From Mustelus asterias (Eukaryota), in contig NW_027590155.1 of assembly GCF_964213995.1 (NCBI RefSeq), forward strand, positions 558,001 to 622,000: a stretch of 64,000 bases of DNA, written 5' to 3'. The position numbers and the translations under genes were made by a program. Below the pieces are notes generated by a model. It was not told where the DNA came from, ran no database searches, and worked only from the letters and a program-made list of their open reading frames with translations. Below are positions 3,802-62,974 of this stretch, piece after piece (position 1 is the stretch's first letter; every line of letters begins with the position of its first letter).

Positions 3802-3844
3802 ATGGGAATCCTTCTTGTTTTCAGCCTGTGTGTCTGTTTACCCA
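3802..3844 (+). CDS. Leader exon of NAR-TCR V (MGILLVFSLCVCLP)
   Basis: ATG at 3802, 14 mostly hydrophobic codons + 1 nt, GTGAGT donor at 3845; phase 1 splices in frame to the V exon at 3993. Confidence 0.9.
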
Positions 3845-3992
3845 GTGAGTACTGATCACACTAAACTACATTGTGTGGATTGAATATAAATCTGTCCCAG
3901 TCCATCCCAATTACAGACACTGTCTGGGGTTTCAGCCCCGTTGTGTGGTTCAGCTCCAATGGTCCATTAAACTCTCTGTGTTTAATTTCTAG

Positions 3993-4281
3993 GATGTTTC
4001 AGTCAGTCAGTGACACAGAGCCCGGCAGCGGTGACCAGGAAGGAGTGTCAGTCTCTCACCATCACCTGCATCTATTACGGTCATAATTGGGGCTATTATT
4101 TCCAAAATGGATATTTCTTCAGACAAACCCAGACCGGGACGGAGCGGGAGCGGATCTTCAGCGGAGGGAGATTTGTTGAGTCTGTGAACAAAGCAGAAAA
4201 GACATTTTCGCTGGAAATTCGGGATGTGAGAGTTGAAGACACCGCCACCTATTACTGTAAAGCTCAGTACTGGTACTGGCA
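3993..4281 (+). CDS. NAR-TCR (IgNAR-like) variable segment
   Basis: Acceptor tttctAG at 3991-3992. Translates (R)CFSQSVTQSPAAVTRKECQSLTITC...GYFFRQ...ERERIFSGGRFVESVNKAEKTFSLEIRDVRVEDTATYYCKAQYWYW. Short FR2 with no CDR2 and the GGRFVESVNK motif match VNAR domains; extra FR1 Cys at 4046-4048. Confidence 0.92.
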
Positions 4282-4319
4282 CACCGTGATGGGCCTCGGC
4301 TTCCAGCGATACAAAAACT
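4282..4319 (+). promoter_or_regulatory. V recombination signal sequence (22-nt spacer, 23 class)
   Basis: CACCGTG (4282-4288), 22 nt, ACAAAAACT (4311-4319). Confidence 0.9.
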
Positions 4320-4679
4320 CTCCCTGCAGATTCTCACAGAACCAAATGAAAAACCGGAGTTAATCTGCCCTGAACACCGCCCCCCGTCCCGCGCCTCCCC
4401 CCCACCGCCACCCCGACAATTGCACCTCACACTCTCGGTGCCACAGTTTAGTTTTTAACGGGACCTGATTATTATCGTTGACACTTCGAGTTTTATAAAC
4501 ACGGAGTGTGAGTGAATGGTGGTGTCTTTCCTGGGAGTGTTGGCGGTGAATGGAGAATGGGAATGATTGATCCCAGTTACAAACCCACACACCAGATGGG
4601 ATCCTGGGCTCACAGCCGGAGCTGGGAGCCACATTCCGCGCGGTTTAATTCATGTTCCAACATCCCACCCACTACCCGA

Positions 4680-4750
4680 TGTTTTGATGCTGAATTGTAA
4701 CACTGTGTAACTTTGGGAGAGTCACAGTGGAAGGAAGCTGAGCAAATACC
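4680..4750 (+). other. NAR-TCR D segment (coding 4708-4722, TAACTTTGGGAGAGT) flanked by 12/12 RSSs
   Basis: TGTTTTGAT-12-CACTGTG (4701-4707), 15-nt core, CACAGTG (4723-4729)-12-GCAAATACC. Confidence 0.88.
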
Positions 4751-5063
4751 TGTGCACAATTACAGTACAAATTCTCAGGGCCCAGACAGTGAATCATTGG
4801 TTTGACGATATTATCGCTGTAATCTGGATTACTTCTCCTGTAATCTCCATCACTCACATCTTTCTTTGATTTTTGTTTTGCTATATATGAAGTTAATATT
4901 TCCTCCCTGCGGCCATTTACTGAGAGCTTGGGCCTCACAAAGTAAAATTTGAACCGACAGAGACGTTGAAACGTTGAATCTTGTTTAGTAATTTTAAATC
5001 CCCCGAATAATTGGACACTTCCGATTGACTGGTGATGGTTTCTCGGCAGATTGAGATGTCGGT

Positions 5064-5161
5064 GGTTCTTGTACCGGGGAGATTGAGAGAGGTGCCACTG
5101 TGTACTAAACGGAAATATGATAATGTGGATGGATCCGGGACGGTGGTGACTGTCACAGCCG
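5064..5161 (+). CDS. NAR-TCR J segment (coding 5103-5161, TKRKYDNVDGSGTVVTVTA) with 23-RSS
   Basis: GGTTCTTGT (5064-5072)-23-CACTGTG (5096-5102); IgNAR-type DGxGT motif; phase-1 GTAAGT donor at 5162. Confidence 0.92.
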
Positions 5162-8100
5162 GTAAGTGACTCCAAACCCCGCCGTGTTACAGACTGTCTC
5201 GTTTAATGTTCCCCATCACTTTATCATTGTCATCTGTCTCGTTTCAATCCAATCGAATCTTCCTATGGAAAATCATCCGTTACAGATTTCGAGTTGGGAG
5301 AAGGATGTGATTCTGGAGTCGGGTCCAGGTCAGTCCCGGGGAAAGTGTCTGTGAGACCTGATGGAGTCGGCGGTCAGCGGGGCAGGGATAGTGGGGTGAG
5401 GCTTGTGGGTGGGGGTGGTGGTGAGGCGCTGGGTGCGGTTCAGTGTTCTGTGAGAGTTGACAGAATCTGGGCGATTGTTTTAAGAGGCACATCAACATCA
5501 AGAACTCTGACACTCCTGGGAGTTTTTTTTTAACAAACTCAAATTGACAACACTCCGGAATCCACTCTGGATGTGAAATGTGACTGGGAGAGGTTTGTCT
5601 GTCGCTTACAACCCGGCAGCTGGGTCTCAGAGCTCTCTCCTGGGCAGTAGATTGCAGTCCTAGCCGTGCAATGGCAATAAGGTACCGGGTGAATGAGATC
5701 GATGTCACTGCGGCCAGTCCATTTAACCGCAGTGACTCACTCAATACCTGACCCGGGAGACAAACAAAAAATTAAACCACGGGCTTCAGGTATAAGGGAC
5801 CTTATTGTAGGTCCGAAGGAATTTTGTAATAAAGAAATCAGTGACTGAAATTAGTGACATTGTATCTGATATTTCCTTAAATATCCTCCTTATAAACAAT
5901 AACTTTTTCTCATTTTCTACCATTAGTGGTTAATTCTGGAGCACAGGTCTTCAGTAATATTGCCGGGATATTTCCAGGGCCAATAGCCTTTGCAGCATCC
6001 TGTGCCTTCAGCCGGTCCTGAAGTCACGTGGAGTGAATCAAATTGGATGAAAACTGACATTAATGATGCTGGGGACCTCCGGAGGAGATTGAGATGGATC
6101 ATCCACTCGATATCTCTGGATGAGGATTGTTGCCAAGGCTTCAGCTTTATCTTCACCGGATTGACAAATCAGTTATAGGGATGTCTGGTGCTGCTGCCGG
6201 CATTGCCTCCTGCAGTCTTCATTGAACCAGTATTAATGCCTCGTTTGCTAATGTCAATGCAGGGGACACGCCGGACCATGAGGTTACAGATTGTGTTTGA
6301 GTCAAAATCTGCTGCTGCTGATGGCCCATAGTGCTTCATGGATGCCTAGTGATGAGTTGCTGGATCTGCTCGAAAACTATCTGATTGAGCACGGCGACTG
6401 TGCCATACTACACGATGGAGTGAAGCTCAATGTGAAGACAATAATTTGTGTCCACAAGGACTGCATGTGGTCACTCCTACTGATACTTCTCTGATGATGC
6501 ATCTGCGGCAGTAAGGTTGCTGAGGCTGAGGTCAAATATGCTTTATTCCCTATTGGTAGTTTCCTCGCTACCTACCGCAGTCCCAGTCTGGCAGTTATGT
6601 CCAGCTATGTGCTACCGAGCCAGTCGTGGTGATAGATATTGAAGCCCCCTAACCAGTATACGTTATGCACGTTTGACATCCTCAGTGCTTCATCCAGATG
6701 TTGTTCAACATGGTGGAGTGTAGATATATCAGCAGAGGCGCGTGGTAATCAGCAGACCGCTTCCTTGCCCATGTCTGACCTGATGTCATGAGACTTCATG
6801 CGGTCCAGAGGCGGTATTGTGGACTCCCAGGGCAAGTCGCTCCCGACAATATCATGCCGCCAGCTCTGCTGAGTCTGTCCTGCCAATGGGTCAGGACATA
6901 CCGGATTTGTGATGGTTGTTTGTGGGCGATTGCTGTAATGTATTTGTAGCCCTGATTATTGTTAACTGAAATCACACAGTGCAGTAAGATAGGAGGATGA
7001 TGTGGTAATCATATCAAAGAGAACAGGAACAATAGGGAACAATTGTGAAGGGAATATTCATTTAGAACAAGCGATAGAGAATTAATCGACATGGAGAGAA
7101 AGATTGGATTATTTCTGGAGAATACTGAAAATACAATAAAACGCAAGGATTGAAAACGAGATTTGCGGGGATTTGAACTGAACTGGAATACTATGTGAGA
7201 TTTGATCTCCTTTAGTTTGGAAGGATGTACATACTTCGGAGGGAATTTAACTAATATTCACTAAACAGAGTCTTGGGATAAAATGATTGTCCTTTGAGAA
7301 GTGATTGAAGACTCATTGCCTATTTTCCCTTGACTGATATTAGAGGAGTGAGGAGTGATCTCAGTAGAATTTATTATATTCACAAAGGACTTGAAAGGCA
7401 AATTCTGGGTGGTAGCTTTTCCAATCTGGGAAGTCTATAATTTGGGGTCACATTTTCAGAATAACGGTTCAGCAATTTGGACTGCGGAGAGGAGACATTT
7501 CTTCAGTCAAAGCCATTGTGGTGAATCTGCGAATTCCAGACCACAGAGAGCCGTGGATAGTTAGTGTTGAACGCATTCAAGGCAGCGTTTGTTATATATT
7601 TGTACACTAAAATGGTCAGGGCAAATGTGGGCAACACAGGAGATAAGCTGCAACATAACTGAGTGATGGAGCAGCTTTGAAATGTGGAACAGGAATTTCT
7701 ATACAATGTACAATTTAGAGAAAACTCTGCCCAGAGAACCCGGGAGAGAATCAGTTAATGAGCAGAAAAAAATGAAATTGAGAGAGATCCAAAAGAGGCA
7801 GTTCCCAGTGAGTAACAGTAAAACCACTGCGGAAACTGAACAGGATGAACGCAACTGACAACTACGAGACTTTGGGACGCGTTCCCACGACTCAGGAAAA
7901 CCAAATAGCACAAAGTAAATGAAATGAAAATGACTAGATATCTCAATGTAAAGAGAAGGGGAGAAAAATGATACCAATAGATAGAAAATAAACAAATAGA
8001 TTAAAAAGCAAACATTGACTGCCGGGAGGTGTTAAACTGAAATAAATAAATGACATTTGGCCACCGATAGTCAACATGGTTCGGCCCCATCGGAGCTGAT

Positions 8101-8454
8101 GAATCGCAATCACTCTGTTGGATCTTGCTGTGCGCTGTGATGTGACGCAGCTGGGTTGTTCTTCGGCAATCATCTCCAGAAAAGGATTGCGTCACTGATA
8201 ATAAAATGTTCCCTTCGATATCTCTCTCAAAAAGGAAAATAGAAACTAAAACCTGACATATATCATAGAATAAGTTAGCGTGGAAGGGCGACATTCGGCC
8301 CCTCGGGTAGATGGTGCCACTTGATAAATGAAATCCAATTCTTCCACGAGCCATGAATTTTCCCCATAAACCTGTTATTTACCTGTTCAGGGATGTGATC
8401 ATTGCTCATTCATAATTCATTGTTAAACCAGCTCCTACTAAGCTGACAGTGTAT

Positions 8455-8930
8455 TCATGGATTCACAGAATTTACGGCAGAAAGACTTCGATCCAAACTG
8501 ATCCATGCCGATCAAAATGCCCATCTAAGCTCAGCCATTCGCCTGCATTTGGCCCATATCTCTCTAAAACTTCCCTATCCATGTATCTGTCCAAAAGACT
8601 TTTAAATGTTGTCAATGTCCCTGCCTCAACCACTCCCTCCGGCAGCTCATTCCACATACGTAGCACCCTCTGTGTAAAAAAAAGTTGCTCTGCAGGTTCC
8701 TGTTACTTCTTTCCCTATTCCCTCTTGCTCTCGACTCCCAAAACCTGGAAGAAAGACTGAGTTCATTCGCCCTATCCGTGCCTGTCATGATCTTATACAC
8801 TTCTATAAGATCACCCCTCTATCTCCTATGACCAAAGGAAAAAGTCCAAACTCTCCCTATAACTCAGTCCCTTGAGTCCTGGCAACATCCTTGTAAATCT
8901 CTTCTGCATTCCCTCCAGTTTAATAACATC
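8455..8930 (-). mobile_element. CR1 LINE 3' fragment
   Basis: WNELPEGVVEAGTLTTFK..LDRYM C-terminal motif. Confidence 0.8.
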
Positions 8931-9124
8931 GTTACAGATCATTAGAACTTGTGCAAAATAACATGTACCTCATTGTACACTGGTTTATAGCGTAAGTCAA
9001 TATCGTTCCATTGGAAATAAAATAATAATAACTCCGCATAAAACTGAGCTACTCCTGCGACTGACACAATCTCTGACTAAAAAATGGCAAAACCTAAACA
9101 AACGTTTTTTTTCTAATCCTGCAG

Positions 9125-9430
9125 GTTCCTCTTCCCTGGTATCCAAGAATCCGTCTCTACAAATCTCTGCTGCCGATGACACGGTTACATTAAGCTGTGA
9201 ATATTCAGGAATCTGTCAGTACACAGTACACTGGTACAGTCAGCCCCCAGGGCAGGCTCTGAAATACTTGCTGCAGAAACACACTTCAGGAGGGGGCAAT
9301 AAAGAAAACGCTGCCGGGGAGAGAATTTCTGCTTCTATCGATTCTGTCCAGAAAATCAGCCGGTTAAAGATCTCCAAACTGCAACTAAGCGACTCGGCTG
9401 TCTATTACTGTGGACTGAGTCGGCACATAG
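9125..9430 (+). CDS. TRDV: Leaderless NAR-TCR-supporting TCR delta V segment
   Basis: Polypyrimidine tract + AG at 9123-9124, phase 1 matching the NAR J donor. Open frame (G)SSSLVSKNPSLQISAADDTVTLSCEYSGICQYTVHWYSQPPGQALKYLL...LQLSDSAVYYCGLSRHI with canonical Cys/Trp/Cys plus an extra CDR1 Cys (9214-9216); perfect 23-RSS follows. Not in the supplied ORF track. Confidence 0.93.
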
Positions 9431-9713
9431 CACAGTGATACAGAACACGGAGAGAGCTGTACAAAAACCTAAACATGGTGAGGATTACAGACACAGTGAT
9501 ACAGAACACGGAGAGAGCTGTACAAAAACCTAAACATGGTGAGGATTACAGACACAGTGATACAGAACACGGAGAGAGCTGTACAAAAACCTAAACATGG
9601 TGAGGATTACAGACACAGTGATACAGAACACGGAGAGAGCTGCACAAAAACCTGAACATGGTGAGGATTACAGACACAGTGATACAGAACACGGAGAGAG
9701 ATGTGCTGAAAAC
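9431..9713 (+). repeat. Tandem array of 23-RSSs, 61-bp period, about 4.6 copies
   Basis: CACAGTG at 9431, 9492, 9553, 9614 and 9675. The first four are followed by a 23-nt spacer and ACAAAAACC; the fifth nonamer is degenerate (GCTGAAAAC). Confidence 0.97.
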
Positions 9714-17451: not shown

Positions 17452-17771
17452 GTAGCCTGGCTGCATCCGCAGTCATCCACCAGCCGGAGGCAGAGGTGAG
17501 GGTCCAACAGGGAGCCACCACGACAATCACCTGCTCATACACAGAGGTGGAGAGAGCTTGCTTGGTCTGGTACCGGGAACCTCTCCACCCAGCCATGGGG
17601 GGAAGTCCCGAGTATATTGTCGTCCGCTGCACCGATGGTTGCAGTGACAGCGCCACATTTTCCAGGCGTCGCTTTTCCTCCTCCCTGAGCAAAACTTACA
17701 GAATCATCAGTCTGACAGTTGCACCGGTGACAGCTGAGGACTCCAGGAAATACTTCTGCATCTTAAACACA
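17452..17771 (+). CDS. TCR alpha/delta-type V segment with three non-canonical cysteines
   Basis: Acceptor ccttcAG at 17450-17451. Open frame (G)SLAASAVIHQPEAEVRVQQGATTTITCSYTEVERACLVWYRE...PEYIVVRCTDGCSDSATFSRRRFSSSLSK...VTAEDSRKYFCILNT with V-set Cys, WYR and DSxxYFC motifs. Confidence 0.85.
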
Positions 17772-17810
17772 CACACTCGCACATTCCAGGCAGCAACCTC
17801 TACGTAAACT
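17772..17810 (+). promoter_or_regulatory. Weak 23-RSS of the five-cysteine V
   Basis: CACACTC-23-ACGTAAACT; the essential CAC is kept, the other positions diverge from consensus. Confidence 0.65.
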
Positions 17811-21955: not shown

Positions 21956-22469
21956 ATGAGCATGGCGCTAGCAATATCTCTCGGTCTGTTTATTGGCTTC
22001 TTATCCTGTGAGTAGTTGGATATTCTCAGAAAGTTCCCATAGTCTCTGTTTAACATTAATCATTCCCTGTGGCGTGACACAAACTGGATTCACCTCACCA
22101 TAATTATTGTTTCTTTCGGTTAGCAGGCGTCCAGTCGGATGTGGTGTTGATCCAGCCAGAGGCAGAGATAGGGATAGTCGGGCAAACCCTGACCCTAACC
22201 TGTAAAACCAGTGGATTTGATCTTTGGAGATACACCATGCTTGGTACCGACACAGTCTCGGGAAGGGACCGGGCTGGCTCCTTTGGTACTACAATGAAAA
22301 TAGCAAGAATTACAATCCGGAGTTTGGTGAACGAATCACTGCAACCAAATACCTTTCCAACAGTGTATTCGTGCTCTCTATTAGGACTTTAACAATGGGA
22401 GACAGCTCTACGTATCACTGTGCACAAGGGCACAGTGATATAGATCACACCCAGCCCTGTACACAAACC
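21956..22469 (+). pseudogene. IgH-like (IgHV/TAILV-type) V segment with a single 1-nt frameshift
   Basis: Leader MSMALAISLGLFIGFLS (21956-22007); V exon 22127-22430 VQSDVVLIQPEAEIGIVGQTLTLTCKTSGFDLWRYTM / WYRHSLGKGPGWLLWYY...GDSSTYHCAQG with one frameshift near 22240; good RSS CACAGTG (22431)-23-ACACAAACC. Confidence 0.9.
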
Positions 22470-35650: not shown

Positions 35651-37335
35651 ACCTGGCGGCAAAGATTCATGGAGTCAGACTCTGTCATTGTGAAATCTAT
35701 TGGTGGGTTATGTAGCTCCTCAGCCGGGTGTTAAGTGTAATTCTACTGTGACGCTTTTATATCGCAAGTATCCATTTAATTATGACGAAGGGAATTTTCA
35801 ATGGAAAGTAGGACAGGAAGTAGCACATCTTGCATTTAGAATTTCTGCATCCCCAGTATCTCGAAGGGGATGGCAAAAATCAATTTTGCATCGGTTTGTC
35901 ACATTACGTGTACAAAGAGATTTTTAACAATCCTCTATTTTGTCCGCTATTCAACTTCATTTGTGTGTGGAGATATCCCCATGCCTTTGTTACCTCTGGG
36001 TTCGCCTTTCAAGTTTTATATCCCACATTCCTCACTGCATTAACTTCAGTTGGTCCAAACTATAATATCCAGAACTTCACTCCCTCCAAGTCTGGCTGAT
36101 CTCGGGCAAGAGGTGCCGTAGTGTCACGGTCAGGTTGCTGTATTAGCGATTAGCCAGAGCCACGGGCTCTCTGCAAGTGGGTTCAAATCTCACCATGGCA
36201 AGTTATTTGAATTGCAACTCAAGTCATAAACTTGGAAGGGAAGGTTTTGTACTCAGTCATGTTCACTGTGAATCTGGTTCAATTATTCCTTTTAACGTTA
36301 TCTACCAACCTTACGTGGTCTGACTGCACATTGACAGCAATGGACAGACCTCTGGATTGACGTAACAATCCGATTTGATTTGATTTAATTTGCTTTATTA
36401 TTGTCACAGATATTAGTACACAGTGAAAAGTATTGTTTCATGCATCATATGCAAACAAAGCATACAGTTCATAGAGAAGGAAAGGAGACAGTGCAGAATG
36501 TATTGTTACAGTCATAGCTAGGGTGGAAAGAAAGTTCAACTTAGTGCGAGGTAAGTCCATTCAAAAGTCTGATGGTGGCAGGAAAGAAGCTGTTCTTGAG
36601 TCTGTTGGTATGTGTCCTCAAACTTTTGAATTTTTTTCCCGACGGAAGAAATTGGAAGAGTGTACATCCGGGGTGTGTGGGGTTCTTGATTTTTGCTGGC
36701 TGCTTTTTCGAAGCAGCGGGAAGTGTTTCAATGGATGGGAGGCTGGTTTGCTTGTCCGACTGGGCTTCGTTCACGGACCTTTGTAGTTCGAATCCATTCA
36801 GTTCAGTGCAATTAGGGATGTCATACTAAGTAAAAACAAAACTATATTGGCTTCTGGGTAAACATCAGAGTTCCCGTCATTCTCATAGTTGCTCTTTTCT
36901 CCATCTTTGTAACCTTCTCCAACCTGTATGCCTTTCAGTCTGTTGTTGCTCCAGTTTTGGCCTTTTGAAAGTGCCCCAAATTCCTTTGGCCCCCTCAATC
37001 CGCGAGCGTGCCTTTAAGAGCCTTGTTCCTGAGCTGGAGAATTCTCTACGTTAACCACTCACCGCCGCCCCCGTCCACCCACTCTGTTTACCTACCTCCA
37101 TTCCTTTAATAATGTTCCTGAAAACTTACCTCACCTTCAGCACATCCTGCTGGTCATCTAACCCCACAGTTTTTCTGTGCAAAACATATTTTTCGCCAGC
37201 GCTCGTGTGAAATCCCATGGACCGTTTTACTCGGGCTTTATCGGAGTGGAATTGATAGCTGCATTTATCAGCGAGATTCTGCTCTAGCAGCTGAAGTTAT
37301 ACATCTGACAGTAGCAGCAGCAACAGCTGCTGACG

Positions 37336-37418
37336 AGTTTTTGTTCTGGCATGTATCACTGTGGTGGGCTACGTGGGACCACAGTAGCTGAATCTCCCTC
37401 AACGCCCGTACAATAACC
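37336..37418 (+). other. TRDD: TCR delta D segment (coding 37364-37379, GTGGGCTACGTGGGAC), 12/23 RSSs
   Basis: AGTTTTTGT-12-CACTGTG (37357-37363), G-rich 16-nt core open in all three frames (VGYVG, WATWD, GLRG), CACAGTA (37380-37386)-23-ACAATAACC. Confidence 0.93.
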
Positions 37419-37602: not shown

Positions 37603-37690
37603 GGATCTTGTTACGGGATCAAACTCTGTGCAACATATGAAAAGGCTAAGCTCATCTTTGGCAACGGGACCAGGCTGATTGTGGAACCCA
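37603..37690 (+). CDS. TRDJ: J segment 1, apparently functional (coding 37631-37690, TYEKAKLIFGNGTRLIVEP)
   Basis: GGATCTTGT-12-CTCTGTG, FGxG motif, phase-1 GTAAGT donor. Confidence 0.92.
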
Positions 37691-39554: not shown

Positions 39555-39630
39555 ATATTTTGTAGTAGCTGTTACTACTGAACTGAGAAGCTTGCCTTTG
39601 GCAAAGGGACCAAACTCACTGTGGAGCCCA
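39555..39630 (+). pseudogene. TRDJ: J segment 2, intact coding (EKLAFGKGTKLTVEP) but defective heptamer
   Basis: ATATTTTGT-12-TACTGAA (the essential GTG is missing); FGKGT motif; GTAAGT donor at 39631. Confidence 0.8.
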
Positions 39631-48886: not shown

Positions 48887-48964
48887 GGTTTCTGTCTGAG
48901 CAATTGTTACTGTGCTACGCAAAGCTAACGTTCGGCAGCGGCACCCAGGTGACAGTTGTACCAA
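48887..48964 (+). CDS. TRDJ: J segment 8, apparently functional (coding 48915-48964, YAKLTFGSGTQVTVVP)
   Basis: GGTTTCTGT-12-TACTGTG, FGSG motif, phase-1 GTGAGT donor. Confidence 0.92.
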
Positions 48965-49724: not shown

Positions 49725-49812
49725 CGATTTTGTACCATCTGGAATCACTGTGCAAACTATGCAACCAGAAAGCTTATCTTTGGCAGTGGAACCAAACTCA
49801 CTGTAGAACCCA
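49725..49812 (+). CDS. TRDJ: J segment 9, apparently functional (coding 49753-49812, NYATRKLIFGSGTKLTVEP)
   Basis: CGATTTTGT-12-CACTGTG, FGSG motif, phase-1 GTAAGT donor. Confidence 0.93.
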
Positions 49813-57226: not shown

Positions 57227-57538
57227 AGGCGAAAGGCCCGGTGGAGCCTACATTGAGCGTCTTTTACCCGCCAGTGCCACGGGGAGCCACCGGCATCGAC
57301 ACAGCTGCAGTTTGCTTGGCCTCGGACTTCTCGCCCAACGCAATCATGCTCTCCCTGTACACGGGATCGGGCCAGGAGGCCAATGTGACAAGACCCAGTG
57401 TCCTATTGGAGAGCGGGAATTACAGGAGCTCGGGTTTTCTCTCTTTCCGCCAATCCGAGAAATCGCCAAACATCACGTGCAAGGCATTTCACGATAATCG
57501 AAATTACTCAGTAAACATCCCGCCCACAGCTGAAATTG
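57227..57538 (+). CDS. TRDC: TCR delta constant region exon 1 (Ig C domain)
   Basis: Acceptor ttttcAG, phase 1 matching the J donors; AKGPVEPTLSVFYPP...AAVCLASDFSP...NITCKAFH...PTAEI; GTAAGT donor at 57539. Delta is inferred from the upstream D and NAR-TCR cassette. Confidence 0.88.
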
Positions 57539-60261: not shown

Positions 60262-60324
60262 ATAAACCTAAATGCCCTACAGGTCGAAGTGATTCCTTGA
60301 CAGAATCAAGTGACACGGAAAACG
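60262..60324 (+). CDS. TRDC: TCR delta constant exon 2 (connecting peptide with interchain Cys)
   Basis: Acceptor cttccAG; 63-nt phase 1/1 exon DKPKCPTGRSDSLTESSDTEN; GTATGT donor at 60325. Confidence 0.82.
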
Positions 60325-60351
60325 GTATGTGCTTTATTCAACATTTATCAA

Positions 60352-62452
60352 AGTAAAAGGCACTGATGAAAAGTGGAACTTTTTCAAGGAAAAAATACTG
60401 GGTGTCCTTGATAGGTATGTCCCTGTCAGGCAGGGAGGAAATGGCCGAGTGAGGGAACCGTGGTTCACAAAAGAGGTGGAATGTCTTGTGAAAAGGAAGA
60501 GGGAAGCTTATGTCGGGATGAGGAAACAAGGTTCAGATGGCTCGATTGAGGGTTACAAGTTAGCAAGGAATGAGCTGAAAAAGGGGCTGAGGAGAGCTAG
60601 GAGGGGACATGAGAAGTCCTTGGCGGGTCGGATCAAGGAAAACCCCAAGGCTTTTTACTCTTATGTGAGGAATAAAAGAATGACCAGGGTGAGGTTAGGG
60701 CCGGTCAAGGACAGTGGTGGGAACTTGTGTATGGAATCAGTAGAGATAGGCGAGGTGATGAATGAATACTTTTCTTCAGTGTTCACCAAGGAGAGGGGCC
60801 ATGTTTTTCAGGAAGAGAAGGTGTTACAGGCTAATAGGCTGGAGGAAATAGATGTTCGGAGGGAGGATGTATTGGCAGTTTTGAATAAACTGAAGGTCGA
60901 TAAGTCCCCTGGGCCTGATGAAATGTATCCTAGGATTCTTTGGGAGGCGAGGGATGAGATTGCAGAGCCTTTGGCTTTGATCTTTGGGTCCTCGCTGTCC
61001 ACGGGGATGGTGCCAGAGGACTGGAGAGTGGCGAATGTTGTTCCTCTGTTTAAGAAAGGGAATAGAAATGACCCTGGTAATTATAGACCGGTTAGTCTGA
61101 CTTCGGTGGTTGGTAAATTGATGGAAAAGGTCCTTAGGGATGGGATTTACGACCATTTAGAAAGATGCGGATTAATCCGGGATAGTCAGCACGGATTTGT
61201 GAAGGGCAAATCGTGCCTCACAAATTTGATAGAATTTTTTGAGGAGGTAACTAGGTGTGTTGATGAAGGTAGGGCGGTTGATGTCATATACATGGATTTT
61301 AGTAAGGCGTTTGATAAGGTCCCCCATGGTCGGCTTATGATGAAAGTAAGGAGGTGTGGGATAGAGGGAAAGTTGGCCGATTGGATAGGTAACTGGCTAT
61401 CTGATCGAAGACAGAGGGTGGTGGTGGATGGAAAATTTTCGGACTGGAGGCAGGTTGCTAGCGGAGTGCCGCAGGGATCGGTGCTTGGTCCTCTGCTCTT
61501 TGTGATTTTTATTAATGACTTAGAGGAGGGGGCTGAAGGGTGGATCAGTAAATTTGCTGATGACACCAAGATTGGTGGAGTAGTGGATGAGGTGGAGGGC
61601 TGTTGTAGGCTGCAAAGAGACATAGATAGGATGCAAAGCTGGGCTGAAAAATGGCAAATGGAGTTTAACCCTGATAAATGTGAGGTGATTCATTTTGGTA
61701 GGACTAATTTAAATGTGGATTACAGGGTCAAAGGTAGGGTTCTGAAGACTGTGGAGGAACCGAGAGATCTTGGGGTCCATATCCTCAGATCTCTAAAGGT
61801 TGCCACTCAAGTGGATAGAGCTGTGAAGAAGGCATATAGTGTGTTAGCTTTTATTAACAGGGGGTTGGAGTTTAAGAGCCGTGGGGTTATGCTGCAACTG
61901 TACAGGACCTTGGTGAGACCGCATTTGGAATATTGTGTGCAGTTCTGGTCACCTCACTATAAGAAGGATGTGGAAGCGCTGGAAAGAGTGCAGAGGAGAT
62001 TTACCAGGATGCTGCCTGGTTTGGAGTGTCGGTCTTATGAGGAAAGGTTGAGGGAGCTGGGGCTGTTCTCTCTGGAGCGGAGGAGATTGAGGGGAGACTT
62101 AATAGAGGTTTATAAAATGATGAAGGGGATAGATCGAGTGAACGTTCAAAGACTATTTCCTCGGGTGGATGGAGCTATTACAAGGGGGCATAACTATAGG
62201 GTTCATGGTGGGAGATATAGGAAGGATATCAGAGGTAGGTTCTTCACGCAGAGAGTGGTTGGGGTGTGGAATGGACTGCCTGCAGTGATAGTGGAGTCAG
62301 ACACTTTAGGAACATTTAAGCGGTTATTGGATAGGCACATGGAGCACACCAGGATGGTAGGGAGTGGGATAGCTTGATCTTGGTTTCAGATGAAGGTCGG
62401 CACAACATCGTGGGCCGAAGGGCCTGTTCTGTGCTGTAATGTTCTATGTTCT
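60352..62452 (+). mobile_element. Young 5'-truncated CR1 LINE with an uninterrupted RT frame, in TRDC intron 2
   Basis: 682-aa open frame with GNYRPVSLTS, GVPQGSVLGP and KFADDTK; no endonuclease domain or ORF1, so non-autonomous. Confidence 0.93.
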
Positions 62453-62864: not shown

Positions 62865-62974
62865 ATCGACTGAGGGTGAACTTTTTGTCTTTGACGGTGA
62901 TGGGACTAAGAATTTTGTTTTTCAAGAGCATTGTCTTCAATGTCATGATGACGGCCAGGGTGTGGCTATTTTGA
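62865..62974 (+). CDS. TRDC: TCR delta constant exon 3 (transmembrane/cytoplasmic)
   Basis: DRLRVNFLSLTVMGLRILFFKSIVFNVMMTARVWLF*, with the alpha/delta-type TM Arg and Lys; GTAAG donor just after the stop (62976) implies a separate 3'UTR exon. Confidence 0.9.

Follow-up and report, generated by a model that had tools for sequence, protein, structure and literature searches.

A doubly rearranging T-cell receptor (TCR) delta chain of cartilaginous fish, NAR-TCR, was reportedly described by Criscitiello in 2006. We analyzed a 64,000-nucleotide stretch of the Mustelus asterias genome (contig NW_027590155.1, positions 558,001 to 622,000 of its forward strand), hereafter the window, which carries such a NAR-TCR cassette near its start. 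Our principal finding is that this intact cassette stands before its own D-J-C-delta and that the assembly holds 19 units of this kind, of which ten or more are likely real TCR-delta mini-loci; we regard this reading as quite probable. The described NAR-TCR consists of a leader, an IgNAR-like V with a cysteine in the a-b loop and no WYRK tryptophan, its own D and J, a leaderless V-delta with a cysteine in complementarity-determining region 1 (CDR1), and then C-delta (PMC1845163, PMC6795676, PMC5931798). It has been proposed that a disulfide bridges its two V domains, that its NAR V binds antigen unpaired, and that the chain pairs with TCR-gamma (PMC1845163, PMC6795676). The locus in the window shares that architecture and differs from it in a private D-J-C, in a V-delta recombination signal sequence (RSS) that is a tandem array, and in sister copies that are partly prejoined.

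Three other systems are close. TCR-mu of marsupials and monotremes is likewise a three-domain, delta-derived chain encoded in repeated [V-D-J]-[supporting V]-C clusters, and the diversity of its supporting V is likewise reduced (PMC7615758, PMC3457774). In the shark, 15 of the 19 units repeat a cluster that has a pair of V domains and its own C. However, TCR-mu arose independently, its N-terminal V is of the VH type, and the marsupial Vmu-j is fully joined, likely via retrotransposition (PMC7615758, PMC3457774), whereas the shark V is of the IgNAR type and the supporting V of the window copy is unjoined. In some sister copies, V and D alone are fused and a J is still needed. By analogy, the layout appears to work like TCR-mu clusters without being TCR-mu. 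The shark immunoglobulin (Ig) miniclusters resemble it in comprising many self-contained V-D-J-C units, some partly germline joined as VD-J or VDJ (PMC6795676); the units described here differ in encoding a T-cell receptor, in having several J segments, and in having two rearranging V domains. Finally, in the elasmobranch antigen-receptor complex (AgRC), V segments of TCR and NAR-TCR are interspersed with IgM clusters (PMC12227049), as seen here, but we find 19 C-delta genes, none of them beside either C-alpha. The same paper treats TCR-alpha/delta as a translocon, as PMC6795676 does for shark TCR, and its Table S1 gives one TCR-delta C model beside TCR-alpha in catshark and stingray, with multiple C-delta in 0 of 4 species. 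One great white NARTCR model in that table is labelled 'V(gj)V(gi)V', which hints at germline-joined NAR-TCR. Multiple shark C-delta clusters were not reported in the literature searched, several key shark TCR papers lying outside that search. The surprising part is the context, namely, self-contained C-delta units with prejoined sisters, and not the architecture of the cassette.

The NAR-TCR cassette and its C-delta

The exons and segments of the cassette and of the D-J-C-delta, like the two V exons between them, lie on the plus strand. The cassette opens with a 43-nucleotide leader exon (3802 to 3844) that starts with ATG and ends in phase 1 at a GT donor (3845). The IgNAR-like V exon (3993 to 4281) is open in the frame of the leader, and its best matches in the PDB are VNARs (E value, 7e-19). 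Its a-b loop reads RKECQSLTITC, with the extra cysteine encoded by TGT at 4046 to 4048, and YFFRQ stands where the tryptophan of WYRK is absent. A further cysteine at the beginning of the exon (3995 to 3997), replaced by serine in most paralogues, would fall within the cleaved leader. The V RSS (4282 to 4319) consists of CACCGTG, a 22-nucleotide spacer and ACAAAAACT; the heptamer departs from the consensus, and the same heptamer occurs in 7 of the 13 paralogues parsed. The NAR D region (4680 to 4750) has a 12-RSS on either side of the D itself (4708 to 4722). In the NAR J region (5064 to 5161), a 23-RSS on the minus strand, at 5102, precedes a J (5103 to 5161) with a DGSGT framework region 4 and a phase-1 GTAAGT donor at 5162. 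With V 22, D 12/12 and J 23, the segments are compatible under the 12/23 rule; a 23-RSS pattern allowing at most one mismatch matched six times in the window, compared with 0.00 times in 100 shuffles. The first-pass annotation, made from the letters alone, had placed the leader, VNAR-like V, D and J here, and the positions, frames, signals and phase-1 donor all proved correct.

The supporting V-delta exon (9125 to 9430) follows an AG acceptor at 9123 to 9124 and is open in exactly the phase that the NAR J supplies, so the fit between this acceptor and the J donor at 5162, which had been predicted, holds. Its extra cysteine, TGT at 9214 to 9216 in CDR1, was also found as predicted. We searched for a hydrophobic leader exon across 5165 to 9124, between J and V-delta, and found none; the sole ATG-to-GT phase-1 candidate there is hydrophilic and lies 1.3 kb from the V-delta acceptor, in agreement with the claim that the exon is leaderless. 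That V-delta has its own RSS is likewise true, but a single RSS gives an incomplete picture: it is the first copy of a 61-bp tandem array (9431 to 9704; 4.5 copies) holding four perfect 23-RSSs and one with a dead nonamer. Such arrays were present in 11 of the 11 unjoined cassettes counted, with two to six heptamer-led copies, of which one to five are intact; they also occur in contigs of sequencing runs X2 and X3, and the ENA protein P0007 reads through the array. For the window copy, we discarded the idea that CDR3 is lengthened through the distal RSSs. Its first heptamer holds an in-frame TGA that would be kept whenever a distal copy is used, so the extra copies cannot directly yield a productive chain. 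They are likely a drifting minisatellite; a literature search on tandem RSSs matched no paper.

All the sequence features that PMC1845163 gives for NAR-TcR, namely, leader, a-b loop cysteine, loss of the WYRK tryptophan, and leaderless V-delta with a CDR1 cysteine, are present, in keeping with the assignment to the shark NAR-TCR architecture and with the VNAR structures that best match the first V. By each sequence feature testable here, the cassette is an intact member of NAR-TCR and, taken alone, would be one more NAR-TCR. The nearest database proteins are 98 to 100% identical, one of them (P0003) being a gene model of the same sequence and hence not independent evidence. Of 53 database matches, 42 were aligned, and both extra cysteines were found in 39 of these gene models, which come from sharks and a sawfish.

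Delta D, J and C segments follow. D-delta (37336 to 37418; the D itself at 37364 to 37379) has an upstream 12-RSS and a downstream 23-RSS. J-delta 1 (37631 to 37690), J-delta 3 (48915 to 48964) and J-delta 4 (49753 to 49812) each carry a 12-RSS, and J-delta 2 (39560 to 39630), with no recognisable heptamer, is likely a pseudogene. The C-delta Ig exon (57227 to 57538), which run X4 shows spliced to J1 and to exon 2, reads CLASDFSP and so fits CLXXXFXP, the C signature of TCR-delta (PMC10322711), as opposed to CLXTDXF in two C-alpha genes. A connecting-peptide exon (60262 to 60324) and a transmembrane/cytoplasmic exon (62865 to 62974) complete the gene. The first-pass annotation had called this the cassette closest to D-J-C. 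This is trivially so, since the window holds no other NAR cassette and none besides this one was found on the contig; two other V exons, one without an RSS and one frameshifted, lie nearer to D.

Judged by the RSS types, RAG would join the NAR V, D and J (22/12 and 12/23), and a separate rearrangement would link the 23-RSS of the leaderless V-delta to the 12-RSS of D-delta, at a distance of 28 kb, and continue to one of the J-delta segments. One transcript would then unite the leader, the NAR VDJ, the V-delta-DJ and the three C exons, all in phase 1, and its product would be a three-domain delta chain. The two extra cysteines may form an interdomain disulfide, as proposed in the literature.

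Nineteen C-delta units and two C-alpha genes

Among 52 candidates scored in the assembly, 19 matched the C-delta Ig exon. All are open, 83 to 100% identical and bounded by AG and GT, and they comprise 14 distinct exon sequences in eight lineages 1.1 to 16% apart, two of which stand 10 to 16% away. Three copies share one scaffold, 1.2 to 3.9 Mb apart and 1.8 to 1.9% different. J4 adjoins all 19 C-delta genes and D-J1 adjoins 18. A NAR V-D-J with a supporting V-delta lies 16 to 58 kb upstream, on the same strand, in 15 units; leader, NAR V and V-delta are open in 13 of these, one was partly parsed, and one has a frameshifted V-delta. Of the four C-delta genes without a cassette, two (C3311 and C401) belong to units that contig ends cut short, C138 carries an IgM VH, and in the 59 kb upstream of C71:11.04M there is no NAR cassette.

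The transmembrane exon gave 19 matches plus two weaker ones, the latter being C-alpha. As a control, a search with the C-alpha exon yielded just two matches, each occurring once; at 74% alike they are paralogues, and the idea that they are alleles of one C-alpha was rejected. The two TCR-alpha loci (C71 at 18.42 Mb and C546 at 240 kb) each have a long J array and the CLXTDXF signature. No C-delta was found upstream of these arrays in 73 kb on C71 or in 39 kb, including one 200-N gap, on C546. The canonical layout, a single C-delta in the order 5'-TRDC-(TRAJ)n-TRAC-3', was not seen in the assembly. Upstream of the J-alpha array on C546 are two segments that resemble D-delta and have a short spacer on their 3' side.

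Segments probably joined in the germ line

We surveyed 19 D-J1 units (the 18 with C, and C973) for D fusions. In seven of them, D is fused upstream, with both facing RSSs lost and the 3' RSS retained, through five different joints. Four copies have a V-delta-D fusion in open frame. Three of these, C119, C96 and C436, share one common joint between the supporting V-delta and D, and as the copies are 1 to 10% apart, an inherited event is favoured. The open joint of C850 is a different one. In C401 and C71:11.02M, D is joined to broken V genes. In C138 (217.4 to 218.5 kb), an IgM V-D1 stretch, matching the IgM of the window contig at 92.6% over 772 bp, runs into D-delta, before J1 and C-delta; this copy would be a fixed Ig/TCR trans-rearrangement. 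NAR D and J are fused in 2 of 15 cassettes, C173 and C90, and the C173 joint was also seen in run X2. Lastly, an inversion at C122:393150-398935 has joined the NAR D to the inverted V-delta end in a coding joint, and 5.8 kb away lies a perfect head-to-head signal joint between the NAR-D 12-RSS and the first 23-RSS of the array. That reciprocal joint indicates that signals of this RSS family get cut. The form of the junctions points to RAG as the probable cause of the joins, and RAG activity in the germ line has probably left several sister copies with fixed partial joins. The window copy itself is fully unjoined.

Number of loci and alternative explanations

Run X4, which we took as RNA from spliced loose ends only, contains reads spliced from J1 to C and from C exon 1 to exon 2. 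Over 57364 to 57410 (47 nucleotides) it holds four haplotypes, with 0, 1, 1 and 2 differences, fitting four haplotypes of the assembly. Run X2, which is DNA-like in covering introns, has at least four variants at 57449 plus the divergent C119/C96 type. If each run represents one animal, at least four haplotypes per run mean more than two alleles. Contig depth was not used as copy number, a single-copy baseline being absent. With every assembled copy taken as real and up to two alleles allowed per locus, the loci number at least 10 to 11; should the near-identical copies be artefacts, the minimum would drop to about four. Ten or more of the 19 units are likely real TCR-delta mini-loci.

The delta unit appears to have multiplied along with neighbouring IgM clusters and to have become detached from C-alpha; its cluster layout is likely antibody-like. 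On balance, we lean toward the wider proposal that TCR-delta has turned from one TCR-alpha-embedded locus into at least ten free, expressed, antibody-like NAR-TCR clusters, in which repeated cutting by germ-line RAG is hard-wiring the supporting V (V-D fused in open frame). If true, the shark would show, in a living species, an intermediate stage of the path that mammals took independently to TCR-mu, and germline-joined TCR V genes would have a second example. Many parallel delta clusters would raise the questions of how a T cell excludes at least ten loci and whether TCR-alpha rearrangement still deletes delta. Unjoined, V-D-joined, D-J-joined and IgM-fused copies in one genome would allow direct comparison of the effect of a fixed supporting domain on the repertoire.

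Several observations weigh against the principal reading. Sixteen of the 19 C-delta genes sit on separate contigs, and some are near identical around C (C850 and C71:12.27M differ by 0.0%, group A by 0.1 to 0.5%), so some copies may be alleles or false duplications. The records of X4 and X2 do not say whether either run comes from a single animal or from the animal that was assembled, and the summed contig depths of X2 do not cleanly fit 19 C-delta genes. The joints seen in single copies (C850, C401, C138, C71:11.02M and C122) could be lymphocyte DNA in the assembly, and a canonical C-delta could be concealed in the 200-N gap near the two D-like segments that precede one J-alpha array. Among the read joints listed, none shows the 5161-to-9125 splice of the window copy; run X1, from another, related organism, gives only indirect evidence for such a splice, in that 42 nucleotides of record 8 precede 9132 and the depth in the J bin equals 31 nucleotides of that record. 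An AlphaFold2 model of the paralogue P0001 (pLDDT, 79; pTM, 0.57) was uninformative on the distance between the two cysteines, as were its Foldseek matches to scFv structures (TM, about 0.4).

We judge it unlikely that real clusters were for the most part carried along by segmental duplication of IgM-containing blocks, with only one or two in use and the window cassette perhaps silent or rearranging to a distant D-J-C. IgM clusters do flank the unit, many NAR cassettes lie away from any C-delta, some of them broken or inverted, V-delta is broken in C90 and C401, and the window allele at 57251 is absent among the X2 contigs listed. However, every one of the 19 C exons is open and keeps its splice sites intact, 13 of the 15 cis cassettes are open throughout leader, NAR V and V-delta (one more being partly parsed), and one of the four C haplotypes in spliced RNA is that of the window over 57364 to 57410.

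A conventional explanation would make this an ordinary cassette of a single translocon TCR-alpha/delta locus, the extra C-delta genes being uncollapsed haplotypes or assembly duplications. It would suit the separate contigs (0.03 to 2.6 Mb) on which most copies lie, the 0.0 to 0.7% divergence of several around C, and the description of shark TCR as a translocon in PMC12227049 and PMC6795676. We think it quite improbable, given three copies on one scaffold that differ by 1.8 to 1.9%, eight lineages with two 10 to 16% away, C-alpha genes that each occur once, the four haplotypes that an RNA run holds within 47 nucleotides, the minimum of four in a DNA run, and layouts that vary among copies (joined, unjoined and IgM fused).

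An additional short form, in which NAR V (22-RSS) or NAR V-D joins D-delta/J-delta directly to give a two-domain chain that skips the supporting V, would obey the 12/23 rule over the 33 kb to D-delta, and C122 shows that NAR-side and delta-side RSSs can pair, but it is very doubtful, as no such joint occurs in the 19 D-J1 units or among the read joints listed and the a-b loop cysteine would stay unpaired.

Other features of the window and related copies

On the window contig, an IgM cluster with the orientation of the cassette precedes it by about 40 to 50 kb. The V exon without an RSS (17452 to 17800) is open and part of a repeated unit, with 14 full-length copies (88 to 100%) accompanying the delta unit in the assembly; it has two extra cysteines and a stop shortly after its YFC motif. 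A search nearby found no convincing leader for it, and an Atlas look-up gave no result. The frameshifted V (21956 to 22469) is an IgH-like pseudogene with a leader, a frameshift near CDR1 and a 23-RSS at 22431, and resembles a TCR-delta-associated Ig-like V, presumably TAILV. An orphan 12-RSS at 36243 to 36270, facing the downstream-coding direction, has no partner within D distance and no J frame. C exons 2 and 3 are separated by an intron with a reverse-transcriptase remnant (60340 to 62450), presumably CR1/LINE-like. Elsewhere in the assembly, converging pairs of NAR cassettes without a nearby C-delta occur on C71 at 16.07 to 16.08 Mb, and similar ones on C153, C444 and C2349. Two different C-delta-like proteins, P0050 and P0056, are labelled Heptranchias perlo, a sevengill shark, and are listed on contigs of equal length, which hints that Mustelus asterias is not alone in having duplicated C-delta.
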